DNA of 64,000 bases from an uncultured Acidimicrobiales bacterium (GCA_963830865.1 CAWHNU010000009.1:495062-559061); one strand, 5' to 3'; positions 14,113 through 63,855 are shown, counted from the first letter of the stretch. Numbers and translations are program-made. The notes: generated from the letters alone by a model not told the origin.

Positions 14113-14179
14113 CCTCGTCCTTACCGCGCCCGGCGACGGTAGGCCAGAGCCGCTGGGGGCCCGGTCCGGCTGGCGAAGC

Positions 14180-15102: not shown

Positions 15103-15149
15103 CCACCGCCAGCGTGAGGCGCTCGATCTCGGGCAGCGCCGCCAGCTTC

Positions 15150-15873: not shown

Positions 15874-15882
15874 GGTGCCGGC

Positions 15883-17082: not shown

Positions 17083-17118
17083 TGCGTTAGAACAGGCGGG
17101 GGCGGCATCCGAAGGAGA

Positions 17119-17610: not shown

Positions 17611-17641
17611 GCCGGGGGCGCCGCCCGGGTCTACCCCAGGC

Positions 17642-23329: not shown

Positions 23330-23377
23330 CGGTCCCCTCCAGCCGGGCCAGCCCCCGGCCCTGGTACCTTAACCGGC

Positions 23378-37163: not shown

Positions 37164-37189
37164 GGATGACGGCCTAGATCGTCAACAGT

Positions 37190-37201
37190 ATTGTGCACAA
37201 C
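37190..37201. promoter_or_regulatory. Palindrome ATTGTGCACAAC (core TTGTGCACAA is perfect) in the gntR/ligC divergent region; candidate GntR operator
   Basis: Read directly, 22 bp upstream of the ligC ATG and 27 bp upstream of the gntR start. Confidence 0.55.
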
Positions 37202-37222
37202 ACGCCAGCGTAGAGGAGGGGC

Positions 37223-38185: not shown

Positions 38186-38203
38186 GGACAACAGGGGGAA
38201 CAG

Positions 38204-39203: not shown

Positions 39204-39227
39204 CGCCAATCCCCGGGAGGGACCGCC

Positions 39228-40368: not shown

Positions 40369-41226
40369 AGCCGGGCGGGGTTGTCGACCAGGATGCGGTC
40401 GCGGGTCGGCTCGTCCGGCGCGAACTCGGCGAGGAGGTCGACGAGGTCGCCGTCGTCGGGCATGTGGCGGACGTTCGGGTGGGGCCAGTCGGTGCCCCAC
40501 AGCACCCGGTCGGGTGCGGCGGCGATCAGCGCCCGGGCGAACGGCACGACGTCGTCGTACGGCGGCGGCCCGCCCTCGGTGAGCCGGTCGGCGCCCGACA
40601 GCTTGACCCAGCACCGCTCGTCGACCGCCAGGGCCAGCAGCGCCCGGAACGGCGGCTGGTCGACGCCCGCGGCCGCGTCGACCCGGGCCATGTGGTCGAT
40701 CACGTACGGGCACGGCAGCCGGTCGAGCACGCGGGGCCCAGGCGGCCAGGTCGGCGGCGTCGAAGTGGCAGACGAGGTGCCAGCCCCGCTCGGCCAGCCG
40801 GGCCGCGGTGCGCTCGACGCCGGCGGGGTCGGGAGCGCCGCCGAGGTGGGCGACGAAGTTCACCCGGGCGCCCCGCACGCCGGCCGCGTGCAGCTCGTCC
40901 AGCTCGGGGTCGCTGGTGGCGTCGCCGATCATGGCCACGCCGGCGTGCCGGCCGCCGCCCCGGCGCAGCGCGTCGAGCAGCGCCGCGTTGTCGGTGCCGT
41001 GGCAGCTCGCCTGCACGATCACCGCCCGGGACAGCCCGAGGCGGTCGTGCAGCCGGACCAGGTCCTCGACCCCGGCGTCGGGCGGCGTGTAGCGGCGGTC
41101 GGGCGCGAACGGGAACCGGTCGGCCGGCCCGAAGACGTGGCAGTGGGCATCGCACGCGCCCGGCGGCGGGGTGAACGCCCGGGGCGGGTGCGGGTCGGGA
41201 TGGGGCGGGGCGATCGTGCGGTCCAC
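40353..41226 (-). pseudogene. ligI: 2-pyrone-4,6-dicarboxylate hydrolase (amidohydrolase_2), one frame break near 40738-40745
   Basis: PPPGACDAHCHVFGPADRFPFAPDRRYTPPDAG and VIVQASCHGTDNAALLDAL match LigI as recalled. After ...HFDAADLAAWAP the sequence VLDRLPCPYVIDHM...LWGTDWPHPN continues in another frame. Length is 874 nt. Confidence 0.8.
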
Positions 41227-41230
41227 GCTG

Positions 41231-46255: not shown

Positions 46256-46909
46256 TCAGTCGGTGAGGCCGGCCTCGTGGGCGACGATGGCGAGCTGCAC
46301 CCGGTTGGTCGCGCCCACCTTGACCAGCAGGCGGGAGACGTGGGCCTTGGCCGTCGCCTCGCTCATGTACAGGGTGGCGCCGATCTCGGCGTTGGACAGG
46401 CCCCGGCCGAGGGCGGCCAGGACCTCCGACTCACGCGCCGACAGCGTCGCCAGGCGGGCGCGGGCGGCCTGCCGGCGGTCACCGCGGCCGTCGGCGGCGA
46501 AGTGGGCGATCAGGCGGCGGGTCACCGTGGGCGACAGCATCGACGCGCCCTGGGCCACCACCCGGACCGCCTGGACCAGCTCCCTCGGCGGGGTGTCCTT
46601 GAGCAGGAAGCCCGCCGCGCCCGCCTGCAGCGCGCCGAACACGTGGTCGTCGAGGTCGAACGTCGTGAGCACGATGACCGCCGGCGCCGGGTCGAGCGCG
46701 CGCACCGCGCCGGTGGCGGCGATGCCGTCGAGGCGGGGCATGCGGACGTCCATCAGCACCACGTCGGGCCGGCACCGGCGGGCGGCGGCGGCCGCCTCCG
46801 CGCCGTCATCCGCCTCGCCGACCACCTCCAGGTCGTCGGCCGACTCCAGGATCATGCGCAGGCCCGCCCGGACCAGCGCCTCGTCGTCGACGATGAGCAC
46901 CCGGATCAC
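46256..46909 (-). CDS. NarL/LuxR-family response regulator
   Basis: GTG at 46909 (VIRVLIVDDEALVRAGL). The phosphoacceptor is in VVLMDVRMPRLDG. The LuxR HTH is LSARESEVLAALGRGLSNAEIGATLYMSEATAKAHVSRLL. Confidence 0.9.
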   Translation of the reverse strand: MIRVLIVDDEALVRAGLRMILESADDLEVVGEADDGAEAAAAARRCRPDVVLMDVRMPRLDGIAATGAVRALDPAPAVIVLTTFDLDDHVFGALQAGAAGFLLKDTPPRELVQAVRVVAQGASMLSPTVTRRLIAHFAADGRGDRRQAARARLATLSARESEVLAALGRGLSNAEIGATLYMSEATAKAHVSRLLVKVGATNRVQLAIVAHEAGLTD

Positions 46910-48107
46910 GTCGCCGGCGCTCCCCTCGCCGACGCGCTCGGCGGCGTCGAGCCCGCCGCCGGTCCACGGAACCCACGCCGCCACCCGCCAGCCGCCGCCC
47001 GGGGTCGGGCCGGAGGTCAGCCGGCCCCCTGCGAGCCGCAGCCGCTCGCGCAGCCCGACCAGGCCCGCCCCCGACCCCGGTAGCGCGTCGCCGACGGCGC
47101 GGGGCGGCGGGTCGTTGCCGACCGTGATCGTGAGCCCGTCGGCCGTCGCCGCCGGTCAGCTCGACGACCGCCGCCGCGCCCGGGGCGTGCTTGTGCACGT
47201 TGGTGAGCGCCTCCTGGACGACGCGGTAGGCGGTCCGGGCGAGGCCCCCGGGCAGGTCGGGGACGTCGGCGCGGAGGGTGGCGTCGACGCCGGCCGCCCG
47301 CGACGACTCGACCAGCCGAGCGATGTCGACCGCCTGCGGCGACGGCGCCAGCGCGTCTCGGCGCCGCGCCCTCACGCAGCACCCCGAGCACCGACCGCAG
47401 CTCCTCCAGCGCCTGCACCGCCGTCTCGCGGATCAGGCCGGCGGCCTCCTCGACCCGCTCGGGGCCGACGCCGGGGTTGACCTCCAGCGCACCCGCGTGC
47501 AGTGCGATCAGCGACACCTTGTGGGCCAGTACGTCGTGCATCTCCCGGGCGATGCGCGCCCGCTCGCCCGCCCGCGCCTGCTCGGCCCGCAGCTCGCGCT
47601 CGGCCTCGGCGCCCTCCGCCCGTGCCCGCAGGGAGCCCAGGAGGTCGCGCCGGGTCCGGGTGTAGATGCCGAGGCCGACGACGGCCAGCACGGTGGCCGT
47701 CGCACGCCACCAGGGGACGGGCGCTGACATGGCCGTCGTCCACCCACTCGGGCACGGCGAAGGCGACGGAGCCGGCGACGACCAGCGCGGCCAGGGTGAA
47801 GGCGCTCCCCACCAGGGTGGCCGCGGTGTAGAGCGCGACCGCCGCCGGGACGCCGGTCGGCCGAGAGCGCCACGGTGGCGACGTTCACCGCGGCGACCGT
47901 CGTCGGGTGGCTGCGCCGCCACCACAGGGCGGCGGTGCCCACCAGGCCGGCGGCGACCGCCACGGGGCGGGGGAACGGCGACCAGGCCGACGGGCCGTCC
48001 GATGCCGCCACGGTGAGGTAGGCGCAGACCACGATGGCCACCACGTCGGCGGCGCGCCCGAGATCCCGGCTGCCCAGCCGCTCGATGCGCTCCCGGAGCG
48101 GACCCAT
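46906..48107 (-). pseudogene. Sensor histidine kinase (HisKA_3/DesK-NarX type) broken by 4-5 frame shifts
   Basis: Pieces in successive frames give N-terminal TM segments, the H-box ARIAREMHDVLAHKVSLIALHAGAL, the N-box YRVVQEALTNVHKHAP, and G-boxes GNDPPP...GSGAGLVGLRERL. Breaks lie near 47855-47866, 47721-47735, 47348-47365 and 47133-47150, with a possible fifth at 46930-46960. Confidence 0.75.
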
Positions 48108-48250
48108 CGGCTCACGTTACGGCGCGGCCCCCGCCGCGCCGGTAGCGCCGATCGTCGATGTCCGGCCCGCCGGAACAGCGACCTTCGTCGGGGGTGCGCG
48201 GACACCCGCGGCCGATGCCGGCGGGGCCCGGCGCGGGTCACCGTCGGGGC

Positions 48251-49015: not shown

Positions 49016-51543
49016 GCGTGGTCGCCTTCTCGCTCGCCTCCGCCTGGCGCCGCCGGCGCCGGCTGGCCGGCACCGTGGCCGCCGTGGTCCTCGGCGTCGC
49101 CTTCCTGTCCGCCACCCTCGTCGTCGGCGCCAGCGCCCGCGCCGGGTTCCGGGACACGTTCGCCACCGCCGACGCCGGCATCGACGCCTACGTGCGGTCG
49201 TCCGCAGCAGCTCACCGGCGGTGAGGTGAACACCCGCCCGCCGATCCCCGCCGCGCTGGTCGGCGACGTGGCCGCCGTGGACGGCGTGGACGCCGTCGCC
49301 GGCCTGGTCGAGGGCTCGGCCCAGGTCGCCGGGCGTGACGGCCGGCCGCTCGACGGCGGCCGGCCCACGACGCGGGCCGAGGGCTGGGTCGAGGCGCCCG
49401 CGCTGACCGGCTGGCGCCTCGCGGCGGGCCGCGCCCCCGGACCGGCGGCGAGGTCGTCGTCGACCGGGCGATGGCCGAGCACGCCGACCTGGCGGTGGGC
49501 GACCGGATCCGGGTCCTGGCTCCCGCGCCGCTCGACGCCACCGTCGTCGGCGTCGCCACGTTCGGCGGCGAGGACTCGATGGCGAACGCCAACCTCGTCG
49601 CCTTCACCACGGCGGAGGCGCAGCGCCTCCTCCTCGGCTCGCCCGACCTCGTGTCCGCGGTGCTCGTCGCCGGGGCGGGCAGGGTCGACCAGAGCGACCT
49701 GGCCCGGCGTGTCGGCGCGCAGCTGCCCGCGGGCGTCGAGGCGCTGACCGGTGCCCAACTGATCGCCGACCAGCAGTCCGACGTGGAGGACGACCTGCTC
49801 TCCGGGCTCTCGACCGGGCTGCTCGCCTTCGCCCTCGTGGCGCTGGTGGTCGCCGGCTTCGGCATCGTCAACACGTTCACGATCCTGGCGGCCCAGCGGG
49901 CCCGCGAGTCGGCGCTGCTGCGGGCGATCGGCGCGACGCGGCGGCAGGTCCTGTCGGCCACGCTGGTCGAGGCGCTGGCGGTCGGGCTCGCCGGCTCGGC
50001 GCTCGGCGTCGTCGCCGGGCTGGCGCTCGCGTCCGGACTGCTGGCCGCCACCGCCGCGCTCGGCCTCGACCTGCCGGTCGACGGCCTCGTCCTCACCGCG
50101 GGCGACGTGCTGGTGGCGGCGGCGGTCGGGGTGGCGGTCACGCTGGCCGGCGCGGTGCCGGCCGCCTGGCGGGCGTCGCGGGTCGCTCCCGTCGCCGCGC
50201 TGCGGGAGGTGGCGGCCGAGGATCCGACGCCGTCGCGGTCCCGGACGGCGGCCGGCGCCGCCGTCGCGCTCGCCGGCGCCCTGCTCGTCGTGGCCGCCGG
50301 CGGCGGCGCCCTCGGCTCGGCGGCCGTCGGGGCCGTGCTGCTGCTCGCCGGGCTCGTGCTGCTCGGCCCGGCCGCCGTGCGGCCGGTGTGCGCGGTGCTG
50401 GGCGCCCCGCTGGCCCGGGGCGTGGACGGCGACCTGGCGATGCGCAACGCGGTGCGCAACCCCCGGCGCAGCGCGGCCACCGCCTCGGCCCTGCTGGTCG
50501 GGGTCGGCGTCGTGAGCCTGTTCACCGTGTTCGGGGCGTCGGTGGCGCGGTCGCTCGACGAGGCGGTGTCCCGCGCGTTCGCCGGCGACCTGGCCGTCGT
50601 GCCGGCGTCCGGCGGCGCCGGGCTAGCCCCCGACGTCGTCGACCGGGTGTCCCGGCTGCCGGAGGTCGACGCGGTGGCCGGCGTGGGCCGGGGCCCGGCG
50701 GTCCTCGACGGCCGCCAGGACGACCTCGCCTTCGCCGACCTCGCCGCGCTGGGCGCGGTGCTCGACCTCGACGTCACCGCCGGCGACCTCGGCACCGCGG
50801 CGCACGGGGGCCTGGCGGTGTCGGCGCACTACGCGGACGAGCGGGGCTGGGCGCTCGGGGACCGGGTCCGGGTGGGCTTCCCCGACGGCACTACTGCCGA
50901 CCTGGTGCTCGCCGCCGTCTACGACCGCGAGGCGGTCGTGGGCGAGAAGGTGGTCGACCGGTCGGTGTGGGCCGCCCACGCCGGCCAGGTCGCCGACGAG
51001 GTGGCGGTGGTCGCGCTGGCCCGCGGCGTCTCGCCGGGGGCGGGGCGCGCCGCGGTCGAGGCGGCCACGGCCGGGGCCGGTGCCCCGCTGGTACGGGACG
51101 AGGCCGGCTTCGTGGCCGCCGAGGTCGCCCAGGTCGACGGCGCGCTGCGGGTCGTCTACGCCCTCCTGGCGGTGGCGGTCGTCATCGCCCTCATGGGGAT
51201 CGCCAACACCCTGTCGCTCTCGGTCCACGAGCGCACCCGCGAGCTGGGCCTGCTCCGGGCGGTCGGCCAGACCCGGCCCCAGCTGCGGGCGATGGTGCGC
51301 CGGGAGTCGCTGCTGCTGGCGGCGTTCGGCGCGGTCGGGGGTGTCGGTCTCGGCGTCTACCTCGGCTGGGGCGTGGTCCGGGCGATCGACGCCCGGGCCG
51401 ACATCGCCACGTTCTCGCTGCCGGTGCTGCCGCTCGCGGGCCTGCTCGCCGCCGGGGCGGCGGTGGGCGTGGCGGCCGGGATCGTCCCCGCCTGGCGGGC
51501 GGGCCGGCTGGCCGTGCTCGATGCCGTCGGCGGGCGGTCGTAG
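49012..51543 (+). pseudogene. FtsX-family ABC permease (two FtsX domains), with a +1/-1 pair of frame breaks near 49203 and 49440
   Basis: ATGA overlap with the ATPase gene. The segment 49205-49440 reads in the +1 frame (...QQLTGGEVNTRPPIPAALVGDVAAVDGVDAV...), while frame 1 carries a TGA at 49222. Total length is 2532 nt, a multiple of 3. FtsX motifs appear twice: ILAAQRARESALLRAIGATRRQV and LSVHERTRELGLLRAVGQTRPQL. Confidence 0.8.
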
Positions 51544-51689
51544 GCTCCGTCGCCAGCCGGCCGGGAGGTTGCCCGTGGGGAACGACGTGGTGGAGGAGGT
51601 CGACGGCTGGGCCGGCCGGGCCGAGCGGGTCAGCCCGGACAGTTCGCGGACGCCGTGCTGGCCGCGCTGGACGGGTGAGGCTACGGGCC

Positions 51690-51800
51690 CCACGTTTCTG
51701 GCAGCGCTCAGTGCCATAGCGGTACGGATTCGCTGTCAGAAGCTCGGGGAGGCCCAGCAGCCACGTTTCTGGCAGCGCTCAGTGCCATAGTGCCAGAAGC
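51690..51800. repeat. 30-bp direct repeat (x2, 71-bp period) with four nested CTG(C/T)CAGAA/TTCTGGCAG arms
   Basis: CCACGTTTCTGGCAGCGCTCAGTGCCATAG occurs at 51690-51719 and 51761-51790. Arm 51696-51706 pairs with 51731-51741. Arm 51731-51744 pairs with 51763-51777. Arm 51767-51774 pairs with 51790-51797. The region lies between convergent genes. Confidence 0.75.
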
Positions 51801-51814
51801 CGGCCAGCCGGCCT

Positions 51815-52516
51815 CTAGCTCGGGCTGGCCGGTCCCGCCAGCCACCAGCGCACGGCCTCGTCGGCGACCGGGGGCGGCACGGTGTGGCCGCCGTCGAACT
51901 CGCGGAACAGGACGTCGTAGCCGGCGCCGACGAGCGCGGGCACGAACGAGCGGCTGCAGGCGTCGATGGGCAGCACCGGGTCGGCGGTGCCGTGGGACAC
52001 GAAGATCCGGGGCCGGCCGACCAGGTCGGGCGCGACCAGGAAGCCCGGCGAAAACGCCAGCACCGTCGGGAACACGTCGCCGTTGCTGAGGCCCACGGAC
52101 AGCGCGTAGGACGCGCCGTCCGATACGCCGCCGACGGCCAGCCGGTCGGGGTCGACGTCGACGTCCAGCCGGTCGACCAGCGCGTCGAGCGCCCGGTCGA
52201 GGAACGCCACGTCGGGCCCGAAGTCGCCCGCGGCGATCAGGTCCCAGGTCGACGGGTGGCGCGAGTCGGGCGCCACCAGCACCACCCCGTAGCGGTCGGC
52301 CGCGGCCAGCACGGCCCGGAGGTGGCGGCGGCCGCTCCCGCCGGCGCCGTGGAGGAAGACGAGTACCGGGGCGCCGGCCTCGGCGGTGTCGGGCACGTAG
52401 AGCTGCCCGTCGCGGTCGCCGCCGACGCCGAGGTCCTCGTCGCGCCCGTCGTCGAACCCCCGGTGCGACACCGTGGGGGGCCGGGGCGCGAAGCGCAGGC
52501 GGGCCACCGATCTCAT
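51815..52516 (-). CDS. Alpha/beta hydrolase, phospholipase/carboxylesterase family
   Basis: 233 aa. VLVFLHGAGGSG, a GVSDG nucleophile elbow, and the C-terminal SHGTADPVLP and GGHTV (Asp/His) are present. Confidence 0.75.
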   Translation of the reverse strand: MRSVARLRFAPRPPTVSHRGFDDGRDEDLGVGGDRDGQLYVPDTAEAGAPVLVFLHGAGGSGRRHLRAVLAAADRYGVVLVAPDSRHPSTWDLIAAGDFGPDVAFLDRALDALVDRLDVDVDPDRLAVGGVSDGASYALSVGLSNGDVFPTVLAFSPGFLVAPDLVGRPRIFVSHGTADPVLPIDACSRSFVPALVGAGYDVLFREFDGGHTVPPPVADEAVRWWLAGPASPS

Positions 52517-52605
52517 CCGGACTTTGTAGCTCTCGCGGGGTTTCGTTCACGGCCGGTTAGCGGCCGCTCCGCACCTTGATGCCCGTACGACGAACGGAGG
52601 TCACC

Positions 52606-55458
52606 GTGGGCACGACAGGCGGACGACACGGGGGGCGGGGGGCGCTCGGCGCCCCGACGACGGCGCGGCGGCTGGTACGCAGCGCCGACCAGCTGGACAT
52701 CGTGGTCGAGCTGTTCGATGCGGACGTGATCGACGGGCAGGTCACGCCGAGCGGGCCCGGGGCCGCCATGCGGCTGACGTTCGGGTCGCAGCACACCGTC
52801 GAGCGGACCTTCGTCGGCCCGGCGCCGACGCCGCCGATCAACGGGGTGAACCACATCGCCGCCGGGGCCAGCCTCGTCGTGGTGCCGATCGCCGCCACCT
52901 TCCCCTTCACGGTGGACGGCGTGCTCGGCGCCGCCGAGGGCACCGCCGGGCTGGCCGGGCAGGCGACCGAGGGCGAGCCCGACGGCAGCGTGACCGCCGT
53001 CGAGGCGCCGACCGGGCTGTGGCTGAGCCCCGTGGCGCCCGCCCGGTTGGTCGCCGCCCGCGACCCGCTGACCACCGGTGACACCACCGAGGTGTGGGTG
53101 GCCAGGCTGGAGCCGACCGGCGGCCCGGCGCCGCTCGACGTCGCGGCCATCGACCATTCGGACGACGAGCTGCTCGCCACCCAGCGGCCCGACCTCGACG
53201 CGCGCATCGACATCGGCAAGAACAGCACCGCCCCCGACACGCCGCTGTCCGCCCGCCGGCTGTGGCTCACGTCGTCCGGCGCCTTCGCCGACCTCCACGG
53301 CGAGTGGACCGGCGGCGTGGCGCTCTACGACCACCTCATCGCGGCCGGGCGCGACGTCCACATCGAGTTCCAGAGCCTCGGCTACCTGCTGCCGTTCGGC
53401 CACCGGGCGGCGATCGCGGACGTGTCCGAGCGGGTCGTGCTCGACGACGCGGGCGGCGGCCAGACCGCGGTGATGCAGGCCACCAAGTTCCTCGTCATCA
53501 TCGACCCGGTCGTCACCACGCCCCGCGCCGGCGCCCGGCTGCTCGGCCGGGGGCTGCCGTTCGCCAGCCTCACGGCGTCCGCCAGCGAGACCACGCCGAT
53601 CAAGCTCGTGGGAGTGGACGACGCGGGCGGTGGCGAGATCGACGGCGTCTCCGACCTGCGGACCGTCGGCCCCCGACGACGACCTGATGGTCGACTACGT
53701 CGCCGTCGACCGCGGCGGCAACGACGTGTCGTTCTCGCTGCCGGCGACGTTCATCGACGACGAGTTCGCCTACGGGACCGGCGCCGACGACTCGCCCGCG
53801 GCGGCGGTCGCGGCCGCCAACACCGAGGCCCGGCGAGCCCGCCGGGAGGTCGACCTCGGCGGCCAGCGGGTGACGTTCGCCGACCCGTTCACCCCTGCCA
53901 GCCAGCCTGCCCGGGCGACCCACCGGTTCCTCCTGGCCTGGGACGGCGTCGACGCCGCCGCCAGCCAGGGCGACCTGATCGGCGCCCAGTCGCCGGCGGC
54001 CTTCGGCGTCCTCGAGTCCGCCGACGTGGTCCACGAGATGGCCGGCTCGGCCACCGGCGCCACCGGCGAGACCGTCGACGTCAGCCACCACGACCGCTGG
54101 CTCCAGAACGGCAACGAGCGGCGGCAACTTCGACCTGGCGTTCCTCAAGCTGGGCCGCAAGGTCTCGTCGCTCATCGGCGGCGGCAGCGCGGTCGGCGGC
54201 GTCGCCCAGCTCGACCTCCTGGCCAACGTCTACAACCAGTCGGCCGGCGCGGGGGTCGACCCCGAGCCTCTCGACGACGCCGTGGACCCGACCGACCTGC
54301 TCGGCGACGCGTCCAAGATCATCGGCAACATCCTGCTGTCGGCGGTCATCGAGGCGATCGAGGTCGGCGTGCCCGGCGTCGACATCCCGGGGACGACCTT
54401 CTCCGAGGACGGCCTCACCGTCGAGTTCACCTACTGCCCGACTCTGCACGACCTGGACGCCGTCGGGTTCCGGACGACCGGCCAGACCCGCTGCTGCGTC
54501 CACATCACCACCACCGCCTCGATCGACGACGGGATCGAGGCCGGCTTCGAGACCGAGATGCGGGTCGAGAACTTCTTCCTCGACTTCCCGCCGCTCATCC
54601 GAGCCCCCGATCGTCGGTGGCCGACTTCGAGTCGATCGTCGGCACGATCAGCTCGGACGGGTCCACGTCGATCGTGCCCACCGTCCGCTCCTGGGACTTC
54701 TCGGGCGCGATCTCGATGCTCATGGCGCTGGTCGACAAGCTGGGGATCGGCAACATCGACCTCAAGATCCTCGGCGACCTGATCGACATCGACAGCTCGA
54801 TCAACCTGCCGGACATCTCGCTCGGCGTCGCCGAGATCAAGAACTTCGCCATCAACCTCGGCGTCGAGCTGCCGCTCGGCCCCGGCGACGGGCAGCTCTC
54901 AATCGGCATCGGCTCGAAGGCGAGCCCGCTCGACATCGACGTCCTGATGTTCGGGGCCACGTTCTGGCTCGACATCCGACCTGGGCTTCAACGGCGGCGG
55001 CCCAGCCCCCCGCCCTGACCACGTCGATGGGGCTGTCGGTCTACTGGGAGATGCTCGACTTCGACATCGTCGTCGTGTCGATCAGCTTCGCCCTGCGGCT
55101 CTCGGCCGACTGGAAGGTGTCCGGCGGCGAGGTCGTCTTCACCGGCGCGGTGTCGCTGGAGGGCGAGATCGACGTGCTCGGCCTGATCTCGGTCAGCGCT
55201 GCGCTGATCGCCAGCCTGCGCTACGAGTCGGCGACCGAGCTGATGGTGCTCAAGGGCACGGTCACGTACTGCGTCGACAGCTTCCTCGGGAAGCTCACCA
55301 GCGGCACCGTGCCGATCGGCGAGACCGAGATCGAGCTGGGCGACGGGCAGAGCACGGCCCGGGCCGCCCTCGGCTTCCCCGCCGCGGGTGGCCGGTCCTC
55401 CTTCTCCGACCGCTACAGCGAGCCCGTCTGGGCCGACTACTGCGACGCCTTCGCCTGA
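52606..55458 (+). pseudogene. Giant hypothetical protein X1 (about 950 aa when frames are joined); no recognisable domain; about 5 frame breaks
   Basis: GTG 52606 lies 5 nt after a GGAGG SD. High-GC3 coding segments run through frames 1, 2, 0, 2, (0) and 1 to TGA 55456-55458. Breaks lie at C5 53670-53674, near 54118-54124, at C5 54604-54608, near 54975-54980 and at C6 55006-55011. I see no P-loop, TM segment or signal peptide. Confidence 0.6.
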
Positions 55459-55511
55459 GCCGCGACCGGTCGCAGCCTCCCCACCCACCCTCTCCCGAGA
55501 AGGTCCCTGAC

Positions 55512-58500
55512 ATGCCCATTCACCATCTGGTCGTCACCCCCCTCCCCAACGGGCGCAGCGGCAACACGCTGTTCCTGTCGGTCCACCTGTCACCCCGGCT
55601 GCGGGACAAGGGCGTCCTCGCCGACTACCCGGACGTCGCCGACTGGGGGACGTTCGTCACCACCGGCCCCGGGCTCGTGTTCCAGCCGCTGATCAACGGC
55701 GCGGTGCGGCCGGGTGTGACGGTGGCGGTCACCTCGCCGCCGGTCGACCCGGCGGTCTGGCGGGCGGTGTTCGGCGACCCGCCGACGGCGGTGCAGGTCG
55801 AGCCGTTCGCGTTCCTCGACCGGACGCGGCCGAACGTGACCGCGATCGACTCGGGCGAGCTGTCGCGGCAGATCATGGCGCTCGTGCGGTCCCTCTCGGC
55901 CCAGGGTGCCGCCGGCGCCACGAAGGCGGACGTGCTCGCCGCCGCCGGCGCCCTGTTCGAGGACACGCTGCCGCCGGCCCGGGACTTCTTCGGCCCGGTG
56001 GGCAACGGCGAGGACCCCTCGCCGCCGTCGCCCGAGTTCCACGACCAGCTCGGGCCGCTGTGCGCCCACCCGTTCCTCATGCGGAAGCTGGGCCTGGTGT
56101 TCGACCTGGAGGTCACGCTCCCGGCGGGCGCGGGCGCGGTCAACACGATCGCGGTGCGCACCAACTGGCCCAGGCCGCGTCGGCCTCACGGCCCACGACG
56201 AGGCGCCGATGCGCGTCGCCGTCGACGTCGACTTCAAGGCCCGCGTCGACCTCACCGACTTCCGGGTGTCCGACTGGTTGGCGCTGGGCGGCTCGAAGTA
56301 CGCGGTCGGCCAGCTCGATCTGATCAACGCCGTGCACCAGATCGACCAGATGATCGACGACCTGGCGGTCGCGCCGACGGAAGACTCGCCGATCGAGGTG
56401 CCGGCGATGCTGGAGAGCGGCCTGTCGGTCATCTGCGGCGACCTCGGGGACGTGCTCCGGCGCCGCTTCGCCCGCCAGCGGGACATCGAGAACGGCATCG
56501 ACTCCTGGCTGGGCGGCGCCGCCACGCCCCCGCCCGTGCTGTTCGCCGAGGACATCACGGCTCGGTTACCGCTGCGACGTCGACGACGAGGTCGCCCCCG
56601 GGTTCCTCTCACTGCACGACCGGCGGGTCCCGGCGGGGTACGGGTTCCCGCGGGACAAGACCCTCGAGGTCGTGCCACCCGACGACGAGGGCTGGGGGTC
56701 GATCGCGCTCGACGACCGACGGAGCCGAGAACCGCCGGCCCCTATCCACGAACGTCACCTACCAGCAGGAGGGCGAGCCGGACGTCGACAAGGTCGAGCA
56801 GCACGACGAGACCGAGTGGCGCCTCGAACGACCACGTCTTCACCTGGGGCGGCTGGAGCCTGTCCACGCCCCGGGTCGGCAACAGCACCACCGGCCGCGG
56901 GACCGTGAAGCGCCGCGAGGTCAACGTCCCGGCGCCGGGCAGCCCGACCCAGCTCGTCGTCGACTACGCCCACGTCAACGGCACGCTGCCCAAGCTGCGC
57001 TACGGGCGGACCTACACGCTCCGCGCGGTGCGTCGACCTCGCCGGCAACGGCCCGACGCTGGCCGATGTCCCCCCGCCCGACGCCGAGGCGCCGCCGACG
57101 CACTTCGGCCGGCTGGCGCCGCTCGTGGCGCCGCTGCCGGTGCGGCGTGCGTCGCGGCCCGACCCCGGGGTCGGAGACCTGCCCGACGTGCTGGTGATCC
57201 GCAGCGAGTTGGAGGACGAGGACCGGGAGGTGGCGCCGACCGACCGTCTGCTGTTCCCGCCCCGGATCAGCCAGAGCCGGCTGGAGCGCCACGACCTGCC
57301 GGCCGGCGGCAACGACCCGGCCTCGTACGCGCTGATCGCCGAGCGCGACGTGCGGTCGCTCACCGACCAGACGCTGGTCGACCCCGCGACCAGCGAGCTG
57401 GTGGCCGGGGCGGCCATCGTCGACGGCGACGTGACCGCCGGGCCGACCAAGCCGGCGGTGCTCTACCTCGCCGACCCGGTGGCGGGCCACGCCGCGTTCG
57501 TCGGCCTGCCCGGCGGCGACCTGGCCCGGCCGGTCCTCGTACCCTACGGCACCTGGCCGGACGTCGAGGCCGTCCAGCTCGAGCTGCGGTCGGGCGAGGG
57601 CGCCCCGCGTGCGTCCCGGGCCGAGCGCCGGGTGACGGTGCGCCTGCCCAAGGGCACGGTCGCCACCGCAGCGCTGGTCACCGCGCCCGACGCCGCGCTG
57701 CTCGACCACATGGCGCTGGCCCAGGGCCTCGACCCCGCCGGCGCGCACCGAGGCCCGGCGGGGGCTCAACCCGATGCTGTCGCCCCGCCGGTTGGTCACG
57801 CTCGTGCATGCCACACGGCTGCCGCTCGACGCCCCGCTGTTCGGCCTGATGACCGCCACCCGCGTCGACGTCGGCCAGACAGACGTCGTCATCGACGGCA
57901 TCCTCGGCGTGCACCGGGCCACCACCGAGCACGTCGTGATCCGGTCCCGCTGGGTCGACACGATCGACGACCCGACCGACCCGGACCATCCGGAGGGCCC
58001 GTTCGAGCGCATCACCAAGCGGGTCCTCAGCGACGTCCCGTTGGCGCCCGAGAGCGAGGACGGCACGGCCGAGGAGCTGACCGCCACGAGCTTGGAGCTG
58101 GGCGACACGAAGCGCCGCTCCGTGCGGCTGGTCGCCGAGGGGTTCAGCCGGTTCAGCCGCTACTTCACCGAGCGCATCGACTTCGTCATGGGCGCGGCCG
58201 GGCAACACCCTGTCGCTCCACGACGAGGGCGTCGTGCCGGCGTCGGTGACGCTGGCCCGCCAGGACGGCAGCGAGCGCTTCACCCGTGGCGTCCACTTCG
58301 ACGTGAACCGGGACGGCGAGCTGACCATCCTCGACGACGGGGCCATCCCGCAGGGGACCGTGTGCCGGGCCGAGTTCATCCCCCGGCCGGTCAGCCGGCT
58401 GTCGCTGGAGGCCTCCAGCGGCCAGGACTTCGTCGCCGACGTGCCGGCGTCGACGGCCCCCGACCTGCCCTCGGTCACCGCGGTCGTGCCGGCGTTCGCC

Positions 58501-59289
58501 CGCCAGGTGACCGAGACCGACACCAGCATCACCGTCGACCACGACGGGCGGGTGCTGCGCCTGCACCTCGCCCGGCCGTGGTTCTCCAGCGGCGACGGCG
58601 AGCTGCTGGGCGTGGCGATCGACCCGCCCGGCACGCCGGACCCGGTGTTCACCCGCTGGGGTCGGGACCCGCTGACCGAGGGCGCCGGGCCCTCGCTGGC
58701 GGTGGCGACCGCGCACTTCCCCGCGGCCAGCGAGGTGGCCGCCGCGGTCGACGGGCGGTTCGACGTCGCCGGCCACGAGGTCGCCTACGACACCGACCGC
58801 CAGCTGTGGACGGCGGACGTCCACGTCGACGCCGAGATCGGCTACCGGCCCTTCGTCCGGCTCCACGTCTGCCGCTTCCAGCCGCTCGCGGTCCTGGACC
58901 AGCACCTCTCGCCGACGGTCGACCTGGAGCCCCTGCGGCTCGGGGCGGAGCGCCAGGTCGAGGTCGCCCAGGTGGCGGAGGGCCAGGCCAGCGTGCGGCT
59001 GTCGGGCCCGGACAACGTCAACGTGGTCACGGTCGTGCTCCAGGAGGCCGACCCGCAGGTCGCCGACCCCGACCTCCGTTGGCAGGACGTCCGCACGACC
59101 GTGCTGACCCGCGGCGGCACCACGGCCGCGGCGGTGCACGCGGGCGTCGTGGACATCTCTGGGACCGGGGCCGAGCGTCGGCTGGTGGTCGAGGACGCCG
59201 AGCCGGTGACCGTCGAGGCCGACGGCGCGCTGACCGACGCCACCGTCGTCGCCTACCGCGAGGTCATCGAGATCCCTGCCGGGTGGTGA
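55512..59289 (+). pseudogene. Giant hypothetical protein X2 (about 1,260 aa when frames are joined); no recognisable domain; 7 frame breaks, all +1
   Basis: ATG 55512 lies 53 bp after the X1 stop. Coding segments step through frames 0,1,2,0,1,2,0,1. Breaks lie near 56169-56172, 56558-56566, 56717-56722, 56827-56832, 57024-57030, 57738-57746 and 58196-58203. The gene ends ...VVAYREVIEIPAGW at TGA 59287-59289. Only an Ig-like VDLAGNG motif (57032-57052) is noted. Confidence 0.6.
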
Positions 59290-62200
59290 CCGGGGCGCGC
59301 CAGTCGGCCGCGTTGCGCATCAGGATCTGCGTGGCCGGCTCGGCGGGCGCCCCGAACTCGGCCAGCATGCCGGCGAGCCGGTCGACGGAGGCGGAGCAGG
59401 CCGACCGGTCGCCGGCCTGCATGTGGGCAGCCACCGCCAGGCGGTGGGCCCGCTCGGCGTAGGGATCGGACGCCAGCACCTGGGCCGCCAGGGTGGTGGC
59501 CGCGTCGGCGGCCCCCCCGACCAGCTCCAGCTCGCCGAGCGTCACCGCGGCGTCGGCGAGCCGGGCCTCCAGGTGGCGGGACAGGTGGTCGAGGTCGGCG
59601 ACCCGGTCGAGGTCCGCGAGGGGTCGGCCCTGCCACAGCCCGGCCGCCGCCCGCAGGCCTTCGATCCGGCGGGCGGCGTCGCCCTGCCGGCGGGCGGCCT
59701 CGGCCCGGGCCAGGTGGTCCTCCGCCTCCCACAGGTCGACCTCCAGGCCGGGCACGTCGGCCAGCTGGAGCTGCTGCGTGTCGCCGCGCAGGAAGTAGGG
59801 CGCCGAGCCCTGGCCCCGGTCCGGTTCGAGCACCCGCTGGAGGTGGCGGAGGGTCACCCGCAGGTTGGCCCGGCCCCGGCCGGGGTCCAGATCGGGCCAC
59901 AGCACGTCCACGACCCGGTCGCGGCTCACGGTGCGCTCGGCCACCAGCAGGCTCAGCAGCTCCCGCACCCGGGTCCGGTGGATCTCGGCGGCGTCGCAGA
60001 CGACGTCGTCGAGGCGCACCTCGAGCGGTCCGAGGACCCGGATCCGCACGTTCGCCTTCGGCCGGGTCGGCAGGGCCCGCAGCACGGCCGCGGCCCCCCG
60101 GCGCACCGCGGCCTCGGCATCGTCGCACCGGCGGGCGACCTCGCGGGGCACGCCCTCGCCGAACAGGTCGGTCAGCAGCACGGCCAGCTCCGCGCCCCAC
60201 GGCGCCCGGGCCGCCGCCCGCACCGCCAGCTCGACCGACCAGGGCAGGGGGAGCGCGGCGCACACGGCCGGCAGCGGCACGTCGGGCCGGGCGGGCACGC
60301 GGCCGGCGCGGGCGTCGACGAGCAGGCGGGCGGCGGTCCGGGCCCGGCGCTGCGACGGGCCGAGGTCGGCGGCGTCCCACGCCCGGCGCAGGTCGGGCGA
60401 GCAGACGTAGGGGACCGCCAGTACCCGGCGCAGGTGGGTGTCGGTCACGCGGTCCGGAGGCCCGCCGGCGAGGAACCCGGCGATCAGGTCCGCCGCCGCG
60501 TCGTCGTCGCCGTCGACGACTGCGCCGCAGGCCCGGGCCACGACGGTGAGCGCGCCGTCCGGCCCGGCCGCGGCGGCGAACGGCGAGGTGGCGAGCACGT
60601 CGAGGGCGTCGTGGACCGCGCCGGGCTCGTCGGCCGAGGCGGCGATAGCGGCGATCAGGGTCGCCTGCTCGAACCGGTCCCGTTCGCTGAGCCGGCGGTA
60701 GCGGGCCGGGCTCACGTCGATGGCACCACGTCCGCCCATCAAGCCGGACGGGTCGCCGTCGAACCAGCGGGCCACCGCCTGGAGCTCGCGGGGCGCGTCC
60801 ATGCCCGGCACGGGGTTGACCTCGGCAGTGAGGTCCACGGCGTCGCCGGCCCGGCCGCCGAGGATCAGGAAATGCCAGTGCAGGCGGGTCAGGGCCTCGG
60901 GCACGTCCGCCGGGTCGACGCCCGGCACCGGGCGGCCGAGCAGCGCCAGGGCGCCGTCGATGTCGCCGCCGAGGGCCAAGGCGGCGGCGTCGACCACCGT
61001 GACGAGCAGGCCGAGGACCGGCTCGTCGCCCCGCTCGGCGAGCCGGCGGGCCCGGATGCCGAGGCTGACGAAGTAGGCGAAGTCGTCGCGGTCGTTGGCG
61101 ACCAGCGCGCCGAGCGCGAGCGCCACACCCTCGCCGACGTGGTCGCCCCGGACGCGGAACAGATCCGCCACCACATCGAGCCGGCTCGTCAGCGGCTCCG
61201 AACCGGCGCGCGCGTGCGCCAGCGCGCACCCGAGCAGCTCGGCGGCTGGGATCACGTCGCCGGGATCGGCCGGGCGCCGGGCCGCCAGCCAGGCCTCGGC
61301 CACGTCGACGGGCAGGCTGCCGAGCGTGGTCCGCACGAGGTCGACGGTGGCCCGGTCGAGCGCGTCGTCGTCGTCGAGGCGCAGGGCGATCGCACCCGCG
61401 GCGATCGGGTCGCCCCGGGCGGCCACCACGGCGACGACCCGCCGCACCATCGCCTCGACGTCGAACGCGGTGCCGAGCGCCTCGAGGTACGGGGTCCACA
61501 GGTCGTGGGCGACGACCCGGTCGCCGATCCGGTGCACGAGCGGCACCCTGGCGAGGAAGCCGTCGTGGTCGAAGGGCCGGGCGGTCGCGGCCTCGACCTC
61601 GTCGAGGCGGGACGGGCCGAGGAGGCACAGCGCCAGCAGCGCGCCCCGGTCCGCCGGCCCGAGCGACCGGATCACCTCCTCCCACAGGTACTCGTCGACC
61701 GACCGGCGGGGCGACATCAGCGCCAGCCGCACGAGCGCGGGCCAGCCGGCCAGGTCGAGCGCCGGCGGCTCCGCGCCGACGTTGGCGGCCAGGGCGGCGA
61801 CCTCGGCGTCGTCGAAGCGCAGGACATCGGCGTCGATCTCGACCACGTCGTCGGCCGCGCGGAACCGGGCGAGGGCCAGCGAGGGGAGCCGGCGCCCGAC
61901 CAGCACCACGTGCAGGTTCGCCGGCGCCCGCCGCAACAGGTCGTCGAGCAGCGCCACGGCTGCGTCGGGCAGCAGGTCGACGTCGTCGAGCACGAGCGAC
62001 ACGTGCAGCGGTGCCCGGTCGGTGACGACCGCGAACAGGCGGGCGAGCGGCGGGCCCTGGCCGGGGCCGGCGCCGCACGCGGCCTCCACGGCCGCCGCCA
62101 GGCGCTCGGGGCTCTCGCAGCCGGTGCGGCACGACACCCAGCCCTCGATCCCGCGGGGCCGGGCGAGGTTGGCCCGCATGGCCTGGCCGAGGGCGACCGA

Positions 62201-62326
62201 CTTGCCGAAGCCGGCGCCGGCCACGACCGTGGTCACGGTCCGGTCCCAGCGGGCGTCGAGGCGGCCGAGAACCCCCGAGCGCACGACGGCGTGGGCGACG
62301 TTGGGGGGCGACTCGCTGAGCGCCAT
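59264..62326 (-). CDS. Large transcriptional regulator: N-terminal P-loop (STAND/MalT-like) ATPase, helical repeat region, and C-terminal OmpR-type wHTH plus BTAD (SARP) module
   Basis: Intact 1,020-aa ORF. Walker A is AGAGFGKS and Walker B is VSLVLDDVD. The C-terminus is VRIRVLGPLEVRLDD...RVRELLSLLV...VDVLWPD...NLRVTLRHLQRVLEP (wHTH) followed by VDLWEAEDHL...DPYAERAHRLAVAAHMQAGDRS (BTAD). An SD GGGAGGAGG lies upstream. The 3' end overlaps X2 by 26 bp. Confidence 0.85.
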   Translation of the reverse strand: MALSESPPNVAHAVVRSGVLGRLDARWDRTVTTVVAGAGFGKSVALGQAMRANLARPRGIEGWVSCRTGCESPERLAAAVEAACGAGPGQGPPLARLFAVVTDRAPLHVSLVLDDVDLLPDAAVALLDDLLRRAPANLHVVLVGRRLPSLALARFRAADDVVEIDADVLRFDDAEVAALAANVGAEPPALDLAGWPALVRLALMSPRRSVDEYLWEEVIRSLGPADRGALLALCLLGPSRLDEVEAATARPFDHDGFLARVPLVHRIGDRVVAHDLWTPYLEALGTAFDVEAMVRRVVAVVAARGDPIAAGAIALRLDDDDALDRATVDLVRTTLGSLPVDVAEAWLAARRPADPGDVIPAAELLGCALAHARAGSEPLTSRLDVVADLFRVRGDHVGEGVALALGALVANDRDDFAYFVSLGIRARRLAERGDEPVLGLLVTVVDAAALALGGDIDGALALLGRPVPGVDPADVPEALTRLHWHFLILGGRAGDAVDLTAEVNPVPGMDAPRELQAVARWFDGDPSGLMGGRGAIDVSPARYRRLSERDRFEQATLIAAIAASADEPGAVHDALDVLATSPFAAAAGPDGALTVVARACGAVVDGDDDAAADLIAGFLAGGPPDRVTDTHLRRVLAVPYVCSPDLRRAWDAADLGPSQRRARTAARLLVDARAGRVPARPDVPLPAVCAALPLPWSVELAVRAAARAPWGAELAVLLTDLFGEGVPREVARRCDDAEAAVRRGAAAVLRALPTRPKANVRIRVLGPLEVRLDDVVCDAAEIHRTRVRELLSLLVAERTVSRDRVVDVLWPDLDPGRGRANLRVTLRHLQRVLEPDRGQGSAPYFLRGDTQQLQLADVPGLEVDLWEAEDHLARAEAARRQGDAARRIEGLRAAAGLWQGRPLADLDRVADLDHLSRHLEARLADAAVTLGELELVGGAADAATTLAAQVLASDPYAERAHRLAVAAHMQAGDRSACSASVDRLAGMLAEFGAPAEPATQILMRNAADWRAPVTTRQGSR

Positions 62327-62390
62327 GGGTCCTCCTCCCTGCGGACCAGGATCTCATCCAAGCGCAAGGGCGCGACGACACCGTCACCGT

Positions 62391-62412
62391 TCCGGTAGCG
62401 GTTCGGTAGCGG
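62391..62412. promoter_or_regulatory. Tandem 11-bp direct repeat TCCGGTAGCGG TTCGGTAGCGG; candidate SARP/OmpR-type binding site
   Basis: Read directly in the divergent region between the SARP-type regulator gene and the PLP enzyme gene. The repeat ends 9 bp before a CACACT hexamer, which itself lies 6 nt before the ATG at 62434. Confidence 0.45.
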
Positions 62413-62433
62413 GCGGCTGCCCACACTGGCGGC

Positions 62434-63855
62434 ATGACACAGCCCTTGGGCGGTGGTCCGCCGGCGGCGATGCTCGACCGGCCGGCCGGAGAGTGTCCGA
62501 TTCCCCGCGACGAGGTCGTCGGCGGCGACGAGCCGGTCCCCGTCCTCGCCGGCCGACGGGTGCCCTACGTCAACCTCGACAACGCAGCCACCACACCGGC
62601 GCTGCGCCCGGTGGCGGACGCGGTGACGGCGTTCCTGCCGCTGTACGCCAGCGTGCACCGGGGGACCGGCTACAAGTCGCGGGTCAGCACCGCGGCGTAC
62701 GAGCGGGCCCGGCGGGTGGTCGGCGACTTCGTCGGCGCCGACCCCGAGCGGGACGCGGTGGTGTTCGGCCGGCACACGACCGACGCCGTCAACCTGCTGG
62801 CCCGGTCCCTGGCGATCGAGCCCGACGCGGTCGTGCTCACCACCCGGCTGGAGCACCACTCCAACGACCTGCCGTGGCGGGCCCGGGCCGGGGCCCGGGT
62901 CGTCGCGGTCGGCGCCCGGCCGGACGGGACGCTCGACGAGGACGACCTCGACCTCCTGCTCGCCCGCCACGCGGGGCGGGTGGCGCTGCTCGCCGTGACC
63001 GGGGCGTCGAACGTGACCGGCGTCGTGCCGCCGGTGCACGACCTGGCGGCGCGGGTCCACGCCGTGGGCGGGCGCATCCTGGTCGACGCCGCCCAGCTCA
63101 CCGCGCATCGTCCGATCGACATGCGCCCGCACGACGACCCGCGCCACCTCGACTTCGTGGCGCTGTCGGGCCACAAGGCGTACGCGCCGTTCGGCGTGGG
63201 CGCCCTGATCGGCCGGCGCGACGCCTTCCTGCCCCGCCCCCACCAGCCGGGCGGCGGCACCGTGCGGGCGGTCACGGCCGACGACGTCGTGTGGGCGGAC
63301 CTGCCCGATCGCGAGGAGGGCGGCAGCCCCAACGTCATCGGCGCGGTCGCGCTGGCAGCGGCCCTATCGCGGCTGGCGGAGGCGGGCCTCGACCGCATCG
63401 CGGCCCACGACCGGCGCCTGGTGGCGTACGCGGCCGACCGCCTGGGCCGGGTGCCGGGGGTCCGGCTCTACGGGCCCCTCCCGGCCGGCGACGGGGCCCG
63501 AGCGACGGGCGCTGCGGGCTCGGCGCCCCGGGTCGGCGTGGTGCCGTTCACGCTGGCGGGGTTCGACCCGGGGCTGGTGGCGGCGGTCCTCGGGTGGGAG
63601 CATGGCATCGGCGTGCGCAGCGGCTGCTTCTGCGCCCAGCCCTACATCGCCGACCTGCTCGACCTGACCCCGTCCGCCATGCTGAGCGCGGCCGCCGCCG
63701 GCGGCGTGCCGGGGATGGTCCGGCTGTCGTTCGGCGCCTACACGACGGCCGCCGACGTCGACCGGGCGGTTGTCGCGGTCGAGCGGCTGGAGGCGGCGGG
63801 CCCGGCGGCGCCGTACGCCCGCGGACCGGTCGGGACGTGGGCGCCGCAGGTCTAG
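62434..63855 (+). CDS. Class V aminotransferase-fold PLP enzyme (cysteine desulfurase/selenocysteine lyase-like)
   Basis: 473 aa. YVNLDNAATTP, LEHHSNDLPW, ASNVTGVV, VDAAQL and LSGHKAYAPFGVGAL (PLP Lys) are present. Confidence 0.85.
   Translation: MTQPLGGGPPAAMLDRPAGECPIPRDEVVGGDEPVPVLAGRRVPYVNLDNAATTPALRPVADAVTAFLPLYASVHRGTGYKSRVSTAAYERARRVVGDFVGADPERDAVVFGRHTTDAVNLLARSLAIEPDAVVLTTRLEHHSNDLPWRARAGARVVAVGARPDGTLDEDDLDLLLARHAGRVALLAVTGASNVTGVVPPVHDLAARVHAVGGRILVDAAQLTAHRPIDMRPHDDPRHLDFVALSGHKAYAPFGVGALIGRRDAFLPRPHQPGGGTVRAVTADDVVWADLPDREEGGSPNVIGAVALAAALSRLAEAGLDRIAAHDRRLVAYAADRLGRVPGVRLYGPLPAGDGARATGAAGSAPRVGVVPFTLAGFDPGLVAAVLGWEHGIGVRSGCFCAQPYIADLLDLTPSAMLSAAAAGGVPGMVRLSFGAYTTAADVDRAVVAVERLEAAGPAAPYARGPVGTWAPQV

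Follow-up and report, generated by a model that had tools for sequence, protein, structure and literature searches.

A genuine two-gene operon of an uncultured Acidimicrobiales bacterium belongs to a very large, unannotated family of paired genes

A 64,000-nt stretch of DNA from an uncultured Acidimicrobiales bacterium (GCA_963830865.1 CAWHNU010000009.1:495062-559061; hereafter the window, numbered from its first letter) contains two co-directional genes, X1 and X2, which form a genuine two-gene operon. Gene pairs of this kind make up a very large family without annotation, with members throughout Bacteria and in at least one archaeon, and the pair constitutes an undescribed system outside Pfam, NCBIfam, and the PDB. 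Our best overall explanation of the locus combines this real operon with assembly errors in the window copy, regulation by a SARP-type protein, and a role for the products as a complex acting in conflict; we give that combination a probability of about 0.5.

The GC content of the window is ~75%, which makes GC at the third codon position (GC3) a sharp indicator of reading frame. Viterbi segmentation of GC3 divided positions 52536-59274 into 13 segments, all on the + strand, with the frame switched 12 times. GC3 was 0.9-1.0 in the corrected frames, and after frame correction there were no in-frame stops over ~2,200 codons. X1 (52606-55458, + strand) starts at a GTG codon with a 5-nt spacer to a GGAGG Shine-Dalgarno sequence at 52596-52600, ends with the stop codon at 55456-55458, and when joined encodes a protein of 947 aa (~950 aa; 98 kDa, pI 4.3). 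The frame-corrected reading of X1 runs in frame 0 from 52606 to 53667, in frame 1 to 54126, in frame 2 to 54610, again in frame 1 to 54977, and in frame 0 to 55458. A 53-nt gap separates the X1 stop codon from the ATG start of X2 (55512-59289, + strand), which ends with the stop codon at 59287-59289 and when joined encodes 1,254 aa (~1,255 aa; 134 kDa, pI 4.8).

Intact relatives and the pattern of substitution show that both genes are real. Frameshift-aware alignment of X2 with a 1,256-aa homologue (P0001) gave 89.6% identity with one codon gap and no in-frame stop, and the same procedure gave 85.7% identity between X1 and a 965-aa homologue (P0043). X2 homologues were aligned over 100% of the length at identities down to 45%, and full-length homologues of the pair were present in >60 genomes at identities down to 25%. 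A genome scan identified an uncultured Acidimicrobiales metagenome-assembled genome (MAG), locus L006, with DNA 91.5% identical to window positions 51.8-64.0 kb. Here X1 (7080-9950) and X2 (10001-13765) are each one open frame. The ratio of nonsynonymous to synonymous substitution rates (dN/dS) between the window and L006 was 0.33 for X1 and 0.28 for X2, compared with 0.23-0.25 for the intact regulator, FtsX permease, and kinase genes of the same region. A first-pass annotation of the window, made from sequence alone, had joined frame-shifted pieces into two co-directional genes; the intact homologues and the evidence of purifying selection bear this out.

Long spurious open reading frames (ORFs) are common at 75% GC, and we considered the reading that the region does not code for protein or that its open frame arose by chance from high GC. 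Indeed, a 960-aa ORF spanning 52576-55458 in frame 0 is itself partly spurious, its middle 1.3 kb being a wrong-frame reading; it stays open throughout because the six +1 shifts of X1 sum to a multiple of three. The GC3 of the corrected frames, the full-length homologues at identities down to 25% in >60 genomes, the evident purifying selection, and the high-confidence structural model of an X2 homologue (below) refute the non-coding reading, to which we assign a negligible probability.

The positions of the frame breaks were determined by frameshift-aware alignment to intact homologues together with DNA alignment to L006. X1 has six breaks (53669 (+4), 54117, 54601, 54615, 54976, and 55001) and X2 has seven (56172, 56559, 56710, 56826, 57026 (-2), 57738, and 58196), each equivalent to +1 modulo 3. 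A further difference in X2, of 9 nt at 57979, leaves the frame intact. The YTLRA-(C)VDLAGNG motif pointed out in X2 by the first-pass annotation is present, and it spans the break at 57026. An arrangement of several small genes in place of frameshifts was ruled out, as frame 0 is stop-free from 52558 to 55456 and intact single-ORF orthologues exist. The frameshifts reported for the locus are accordingly real, and they are not the mere detail they had been taken for: the window copy is unreadable as it stands.

When the window was compared with L006 over 17.7 kb, all ~19 frame-breaking differences in coding sequence were +1 modulo 3. Thirteen lie in X1 and X2, five in a gene for a HisKA_3 histidine kinase (46906-48110, - strand; +1-type indels at 46916, 47145, 47360 (-2), 47704, and 47853), and one at 49205. 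The kinase gene is intact in L006 (701-1891, 396 aa), and its error signature in the window is the same as that of X1 and X2. Single +1 indels between the window and L006 are also seen at 48125 and at the above-mentioned 49205. No net frame break was found in the regulator, FtsX, esterase, or aminotransferase genes, although in the regulator gene a single pair of indels (-7/+1 at 60724/60735) is compensated locally. Elsewhere in the window, GC3 reveals further stop-free frame switches on the same strand at 15059-17642, 22647-24747, 37165-40019, 40732-41227, and 49204-49421; judged by these switches, more window genes may carry indels.

We consider it probable that the breaks in the window are local consensus errors of an indel-prone assembly. 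This interpretation is favored because there are no in-frame stops, dN/dS is low, the L006 copy is intact, and the +1 bias is uniform. The alternative is that X1 and X2 are true pseudogenes, inactivated very recently in a lineage that has lost the system together with the sensor-kinase gene. The concentration of the breaks in three genes (X1, X2, and the HisKA_3 kinase gene), alongside ~7 kb of adjacent genes without a net break, speaks for such decay, and the existence of fragmented copies of the pair at L009, L048, L059, L061, L063, L064, and L067 could mean that loss is frequent. However, all ~19 coding frame breaks have the same +1 sense, and this uniformity is unlike bacterial gene decay, which is deletion-biased: a deletion bias in natural bacterial pseudogenes was reportedly described by Mira, Ochman and Moran in 2001. 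A decayed gene would also be expected to combine breaks with relaxed selection or in-frame stops, whereas X1 and X2 together have 13 breaks, no stops over the ~2,200 codons, and dN/dS values (0.28-0.33) as low as those of intact genes. Divergence from outgroup proteins tells the same way. X2 from the window is 89.1% identical to them, compared with 90.0% for L006, so that there is almost no extra divergence; the corresponding values for X1 are 84.3% and 88.3%, a difference of 4 points that partly reflects out-of-frame residues at crude frame junctions. Finally, most of the fragmented copies come from long-read assemblies, with L009, L048, L061, L064, and L067 originating from Nanopore-only metagenome assemblies given one Medaka polish. 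Recent inactivation is therefore unlikely in our judgment. The close relatives of the window genome are likewise Nanopore-only, Medaka-polished MAGs (PMC12313526).

Two other interrupted copies deserve description in their own right. In L059, which is annotated as the complete genome of Pseudoxanthomonas sp. NC8 (CP060419.1, 4600-12932), X1 and X2 are distributed over at least 11 ORF pieces. Three MAGs of the Acidimicrobiaceae/Acidimicrobiales from separate projects (L022, L025, and L026) share a break point in X1, which is divided there into a 345-aa and an 856-aa ORF with a 4-nt overlap (6366-7403 and 7400-9970). This could be a genuine split gene and not an error.

The first-pass annotation had called the locus an orphan, which does not hold. 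A profile search with X1 against 1.84 billion cluster representatives (clustered at 50% identity) returned 4,600, 3,612, and 2,340 representatives at E ≤ 1e-3, 1e-10, and 1e-30, respectively, from bacteria and an archaeon. A genome scan with X2 returned 62 loci across phyla. The taxa represented include the Acidimicrobiia, Actinomycetes, Chloroflexota, Acidobacteriota, Armatimonadota/Abditibacteriaceae, Planctomycetota, Verrucomicrobiota, and Gemmatimonadota, one Nitrososphaeraceae archaeon, and the Alpha-, Beta-, and Gammaproteobacteria (Rhodovulum, Rhodoblastus, Methylobacter, and Pseudoxanthomonas). Copies are also carried on plasmids or chromids, including Bacillus cereus-group megaplasmids, the chromid of C. 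metallidurans CH34 (NC_007974.2, ~1,316.7-1,325.6 kb), and plasmids of Rhizobium and Streptomyces; Streptomyces sp. NBC_01334 is among the strains with the pair.

In every locus for which upstream sequence was available (63/63), X2 is directly preceded on the same strand by an X1 homologue, and the pairing of the two genes is conserved. They are separated by a median of 3 nt, with frequent overlaps; together with the adjacency, this argues for translational coupling and for a stoichiometric complex. All-against-all clustering of flanking ORFs revealed no third conserved gene beyond close relatives. AcrB-type pumps, which lie near some proteobacterial copies, were rejected as a third partner because their presence is probably coincidental. 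The flanking genes are mostly of housekeeping type (RND efflux, DPP-IV, photosynthetic reaction-centre cytochrome, PhoD, and CoA-transferases).

Some individual loci have unusual features. On plasmid p1 of Bacillus sp. PGP15 (L071, 12592-19111), the pair is followed downstream by two genes with DNA/RNA-helicase domains, a small GTP pyrophosphokinase, and an LA2681-family HEPN protein, a neighborhood that is defence-island-like and unlike that of most other loci. In L001, an Ilumatobacteraceae genome, a gene divergent from X1 (2553-6764, - strand) encodes a 1,403-aa protein with one fn3 domain and no other Pfam match; this protein was not seen beside the pair outside L001. About one-third of the listed X1 relatives (e.g. 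L003, L013, L027, L028, L039, and L047) have a conserved N-terminal extension of ~450-600 aa, for which no Pfam match was found and which is lacking from the window X1.

Searches for a known family gave no characterised match. The joined X1 and X2 proteins had no match at E ≤ 1 in Pfam-A or NCBIfam, nor to any family in PADLOC-DB v2, which covers systems described up to 2023. When 25 X2 and 20 X1 homologues were compared with the family hidden Markov models, only sub-threshold matches were obtained, the best being DUF7223 (E = 0.004, 5 of 20 X1) and AIMA-like_N (E = 0.013, 1 of 25 X2). Longer homologues from other phyla were likewise without domains. Among 32 long X1 homologues, 31 were without a family match, and the remaining one is fused to an Rv2525c glycoside-hydrolase-like domain. 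With six diverse members as queries, PHROGs gave no match for five and, for one, a match at E = 0.0018 to a family of unknown function. Sequence-profile searches of the PDB, with narrow and with broad alignments, yielded only insignificant matches (4s36 "phage baseplate protein", E = 0.92; nesprin, E = 0.36). X1 and X2 are not homologous to one another by BLASTP, and the X1 C-terminal β-meander used alone as a query retrieved no other architectures, only X1 gene fragments. All source names retrieved were "hypothetical protein", including those of RefSeq PGAP records. The absence of a recognisable domain recorded in the first-pass annotation therefore persists across Pfam, NCBIfam, PADLOC, PHROGs, PDB sequence, and fold searches.

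Neither X1 nor X2 has a P-loop, a transmembrane helix, a signal peptide, or an RHS/YD match. No signal peptide or N-terminal transmembrane helix was detected in either family in any lineage, homology beginning at residues 2-8 in many members, and no sortase motif or lipoprotein, Sec, or Tat signal was seen in any lineage. A phage origin was also rejected: a tblastn search of 50,697 phage records gave no match, only one relative was present among the 2.9 million contigs of IMG/VR, and the PHROGs results (above) agree, so that the pair does not group with phage structural proteins. In L028, an Actinomycetota MAG, the X1 and X2 homologues (4583-9991 and 10001-14857) both have a sub-threshold match to a fungal fucose-specific lectin β-propeller (E = 2.4e-3 and 1.2e-4), which suggests that a sugar-binding domain may have been inserted in parallel into both partners.

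AlphaFold2 models were made of homologues, P0017 for X2 and P0043 for X1. The P0017 model has a mean predicted local distance difference test score (pLDDT) of 88 and a predicted template modelling score of 0.65. It consists of a mixed α/β N-terminal third followed by a series of β-sandwich domains. The N-terminal 300 residues of X2 contain the conserved motif DFHQALS..YP.LLRALGLVFDLE, and its N terminus carries an invariant MP..HL..TPLPNG. The P0043 model is of medium confidence (pLDDT 66.7) and nearly all-β, with a confident domain at residues 300-480 and ~16-18 long antiparallel strands at the C terminus. Across phyla, conservation of X1 is strongest in the C-terminal 330 residues; they form a Gly-rich β-meander with the runs FGGGGFF, GVASGxVxVMAGIYF, and VLGLISAS, and terminate in an invariant W..Y..AFA. 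The models and the pI values of 4.3 and 4.8 agree with the earlier description of both proteins as acidic and β-rich.

Foldseek searches of the PDB and of viral models with X2 returned only generic proteins with multiple immunoglobulin (Ig), macroglobulin (MG), or FN3 domains at E ~1e-7 and template modelling scores (TM-scores) of 0.06-0.19, among them C3, CD109, A2ML1, a mastigoneme, S-layer proteins, and phage FN3/Big proteins. Because of these TM-scores, the likeness of X2 to Ig/MG proteins is, as far as the model goes, one of domains and not of common architecture. The Ig/macroglobulin proteins (complement C3, α-2-macroglobulin, CD109, and bacterial Big/FN3 proteins) share the chain of β-sandwiches with X2 and rank first in Foldseek (probability ≤0.99), as do phage FN3/Big-domain proteins in BFVD, although only single domains superpose. 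Furthermore, no A2M, MG, thioester, or Big Pfam model matched any of the 25 X2 members, X2 has no signal peptide, and the Ig/macroglobulin proteins have no counterpart to its N-terminal 300 residues. Membership of the α-2-macroglobulin/complement family is not indicated by these results, the fold likeness (TM-score ≤0.14) being generic.

With X1, Foldseek retrieved only large β-barrels, namely SlpA (the best match, E = 2.3e-6, probability 0.91), LptD, ushers, and porins, and more weakly the YenB/RHS2 and teneurin shells (E ~1e-2, probability ≤0.07). TM-scores were ≤0.14 against the large barrels and shells and ≤0.28 against small porins, the latter being normalised to a much shorter target. 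The resemblance to the large barrels (Deinococcus SlpA, LptD, PapC/FimD ushers, and porins) lies in the C-terminal antiparallel meander of ~16-18 strands. Unlike the barrels and shells, X1 lacks a signal peptide and YD repeats and matches no outer-membrane protein or RHS model of Pfam. Its conserved core starts at residues 2-8 with no N-terminal hydrophobic segment, unlike an outer-membrane barrel, and members of the family also occur in organisms devoid of an outer membrane, namely monoderm bacteria and an archaeon. The lack of any RHS or YD match likewise separates X1 from RHS/YD and Tc-toxin shells. The structural follow-up proposed with the first-pass annotation, by Pfam, AlphaFold, and Foldseek, has in sum given generic folds and no confident characterised family.

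Upstream of X1 lies a putative SARP-type operator (52545-52566, + strand) consisting of two 11-bp direct-repeat units, GTTCACGG-ccg and GTTAGCGG-ccg, with a -10-like hexamer, CTTGAT (52575-52580), 8 bp past the 3′ unit. The repeat TTCGTTCACGG CCGGTTAGCGG previously noticed at 52542-52563 is present, but it is a conserved box of the SARP type rather than the weak echo it was said to be. A 19-nt core, GTTNRCGGNNGGTTARCGG, occurs once in the window and exactly once each in L001/L011, L006, L007, and L009, in each case shortly upstream of X1; since these same sequences supplied the pattern, the count is descriptive and not a test. The X1 and X2 proteins of the core-bearing L006, L009, L007, and L001 are 49-67% identical, and the core is found nowhere else in the 24-kb loci. 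L005 has a more diverged copy of the box upstream of X1. On sequence grounds, the conserved core upstream of X1 is a phylogenetic footprint.

A second SARP-type box (62394-62415, + strand) is located in the divergent spacer between the regulator and aminotransferase genes. It is composed of the units GGTAGCGG-ttc and GGTAGCGG-gcg, with the 8-mer GGTAGCGG starting at 62394 and 62405, and is partly conserved in L006 and L005. The hexamer CACTGG (62424-62429) lies 8 bp past this box and resembles a -10 element; that of afsS is CACTGT. SARP boxes consist of two 11-bp direct repeats, of which the first 8 bp are contacted, with the 3′ repeat 8 bp from the -10 element (PMC10936776). Both boxes in the window fit this published layout, having 8 conserved and 3 free bases per unit and 8 bp to the -10-like hexamer, and we infer that the regulator binds to both.

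The regulator gene (59264-62326, - strand) is intact and convergent with X2, the 3′ ends of the two genes overlapping by 26 nt. Its 1,020-aa product combines a MalT-like STAND ATPase with a SARP module. Pfam BTAD matched residues 863-1003 at E = 3.3e-14, and AAA_22 scored 25 bits, below the 27-bit cut-off. In phmmer searches of the PDB, residues 6-210 matched MalT (8bob, E = 2e-8) and residues 759-1004 matched positions 44-280 of the AfsR SARP domain (8hvr_I, E = 6.9e-6), covering the winged helix-turn-helix and BTAD. The regulator thus has the OmpR-type winged helix-turn-helix followed by BTAD that defines the SARP family. About 550 residues without an assigned domain lie between the ATPase and SARP domains. 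AfsR-type large SARPs share the two modules with the regulator; however, SARP comes first in AfsR, whereas in the regulator the order is reversed, with the ATPase N-terminal and SARP C-terminal. The regulator also differs from the AfsR-type proteins in lying beside no biosynthetic genes and in accompanying the pair in one clade only.

In the Acidimicrobiales clade, the regulator would switch on the operon, its C-terminal SARP module binding as a dimer to the two 11-bp repeats that overlap the -35 region of the X1 promoter. The gene keeps its position in the P0001 contig, L001, L005, and L006. The link drawn by the first-pass annotation between the regulator and the pair remains plausible, given the conserved box and the similar box beside the regulator gene, and the conserved box lends it more credit than it was first given; on the other hand, the regulator is clade-specific, being beside the pair only within the Acidimicrobiales/Ilumatobacteraceae and absent beside the pair in L004 and L009. 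Co-occurrence of the pair with the regulator across genomes at large is consequently not a feature of the family.

The remaining neighbors of the operon are a class-V aminotransferase gene and an esterase gene. The former (62434-63855, + strand; Pfam Aminotran_5, E = 1.7e-78) starts with the ATG at 62434 and is syntenic in L005, L006, and L009. Driven from the second box, the aminotransferase transcript would be leaderless, and the gene, lying just downstream of this box, may be co-regulated with X1-X2. The esterase gene, of the Abhydrolase_2 type (51815-52516, - strand), is divergent from X1. Between the FtsX permease and esterase genes, L006 (5332-6304) has an extra Abhydrolase_1/6 gene that is not in the window; the alignment with the corresponding window region (51632-51830) has gaps of 311, 218, 69, and 56 nt. 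The first-pass coordinates of X1, X2, the regulator, and the esterase were all correct, as were its Shine-Dalgarno sequence, 53-nt gap, and 26-nt overlap. The 10-mer GATCTCATCC has only two copies in the 64 kb, at 52509-52518 and 62350-62359, both in divergent spacers and 36-44 nt upstream of the direct-repeat boxes. L006 conserves them as GATCTCATCC and GATCTCATTC. Positions 52514-52516 within the first copy are the esterase start codon (CAT on the + strand). The 10-mer may be a second cis element common to both spacers, or its recurrence may be coincidental.

We propose the following mechanism for the pair. X1 and X2 are co-transcribed and probably co-translated; the two proteins would be made in equal amounts in the cytoplasm and would form a heteromeric complex. 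Within it, the Ig-like array of X2 would act as a recognition scaffold for a target, and the Gly-rich β-meander of X1 would act on the membrane or envelope; the complex would work from within the cell or following non-classical release. The structural, adhesin-like, or defence-type role offered in the first-pass annotation remains speculation. Our suggestion that the complex serves in conflict, whether with phage or with other cells, X2 recognising and X1 attacking the membrane or envelope, is tentative. Faint hints of a conflict role come from the patchy cross-domain distribution, which includes plasmids, from the sub-threshold lectin-like inserts in both L028 proteins and the single Rv2525c fusion, and from the HEPN, helicase, and GTP-pyrophosphokinase neighbors on the Bacillus plasmid. 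The barrel-like fold matches of X1 hint, again faintly, at membrane activity. Equally tentative is the more general formulation that X1-X2 is an undescribed, prokaryote-wide two-protein machine, membrane- or envelope-active in conflict, that in the Acidimicrobiales is under a STAND-SARP activator of reversed architecture.

The same observations could be accommodated by a more specific function in anti-phage defence or abortive infection, in which X2 would be a cytoplasmic phage sensor and X1 would permeabilise the membrane of its own cell, by analogy with gasdermin-type β-barrels. Such a function would agree with a self-contained two-gene module that is patchily distributed across phyla and plasmids and is independent of a secretion signal, with the barrel-like Foldseek matches of the X1 β-meander, and with the setting of the Bacillus sp. 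PGP15 copy. However, no PADLOC model matched, the neighborhoods examined contain mostly metabolic or efflux genes, and the pair encodes no nuclease, NTPase, or protease trigger. Moreover, Ig-like arrays and accretions of the lectin or glycosidase type are more typical of extracellular proteins. We regard dedicated anti-phage defence as quite unlikely.

The extracellular character of these domains leads to a further possibility, that the pair builds an adhesin- or S-layer-like structure of the cell surface or envelope, or else a binary toxin that is released, with export by an unrecognised route or through lysis. X2 has a likeness to S-layer proteins, mastigonemes, and surface proteins with multiple Ig/MG/FN3 domains and contains the "DLAGN" Ig-strand motif; the lectin-like sub-threshold inserts, the fusion to a cell-wall-hydrolase-like domain, and the acidity of both proteins would also be in keeping with it. 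Nevertheless, transmembrane anchors, sortase motifs, and signals of the Sec, Tat, or lipoprotein type were seen in no lineage, there is no conserved lysis or holin partner, and the module is shared by diderms, monoderms, and an archaeon, which have no common export machinery. A surface or toxin function accordingly seems to us as improbable as anti-phage defence.

Several findings weigh against the overall explanation preferred here, namely a real operon with assembly errors, SARP control, and a conflict complex. The indels are clustered in particular genes and not evenly spread, the one fact that decay fits better. On the functional side, no catalytic or toxin domain was found in X1 or X2, the fold matches are generic (TM-scores ≤0.14), the X1 model reaches only medium confidence, the flanks are mostly housekeeping genes and not defence islands or mobile elements, and PADLOC gave no match. 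With respect to regulation, a promoter scan found no σ70 consensus, and the -10 assignments are weak hexamers. PhoP-type regulators recognise similar 11-nt direct repeats with a GTTCAC core, and the X1 box also resembles these. Finally, L004 and L009 have no neighboring regulator, yet L009 keeps the box.

The two proteins together amount to ~230 kDa, are encoded by invariantly adjacent genes, and are named "hypothetical" in every database queried; an annotation blind spot of this size is rare. For the window copy, gene callers would miss or mis-split the genes because of the +1 indels, and loci in long-read MAGs should be frame-corrected before they are called degraded. The occurrence of the pair in culturable, tractable hosts (C. 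metallidurans CH34, the B. cereus group, and Streptomyces) makes its function directly testable, and the link to the SARP box provides a handle for inducing the operon.

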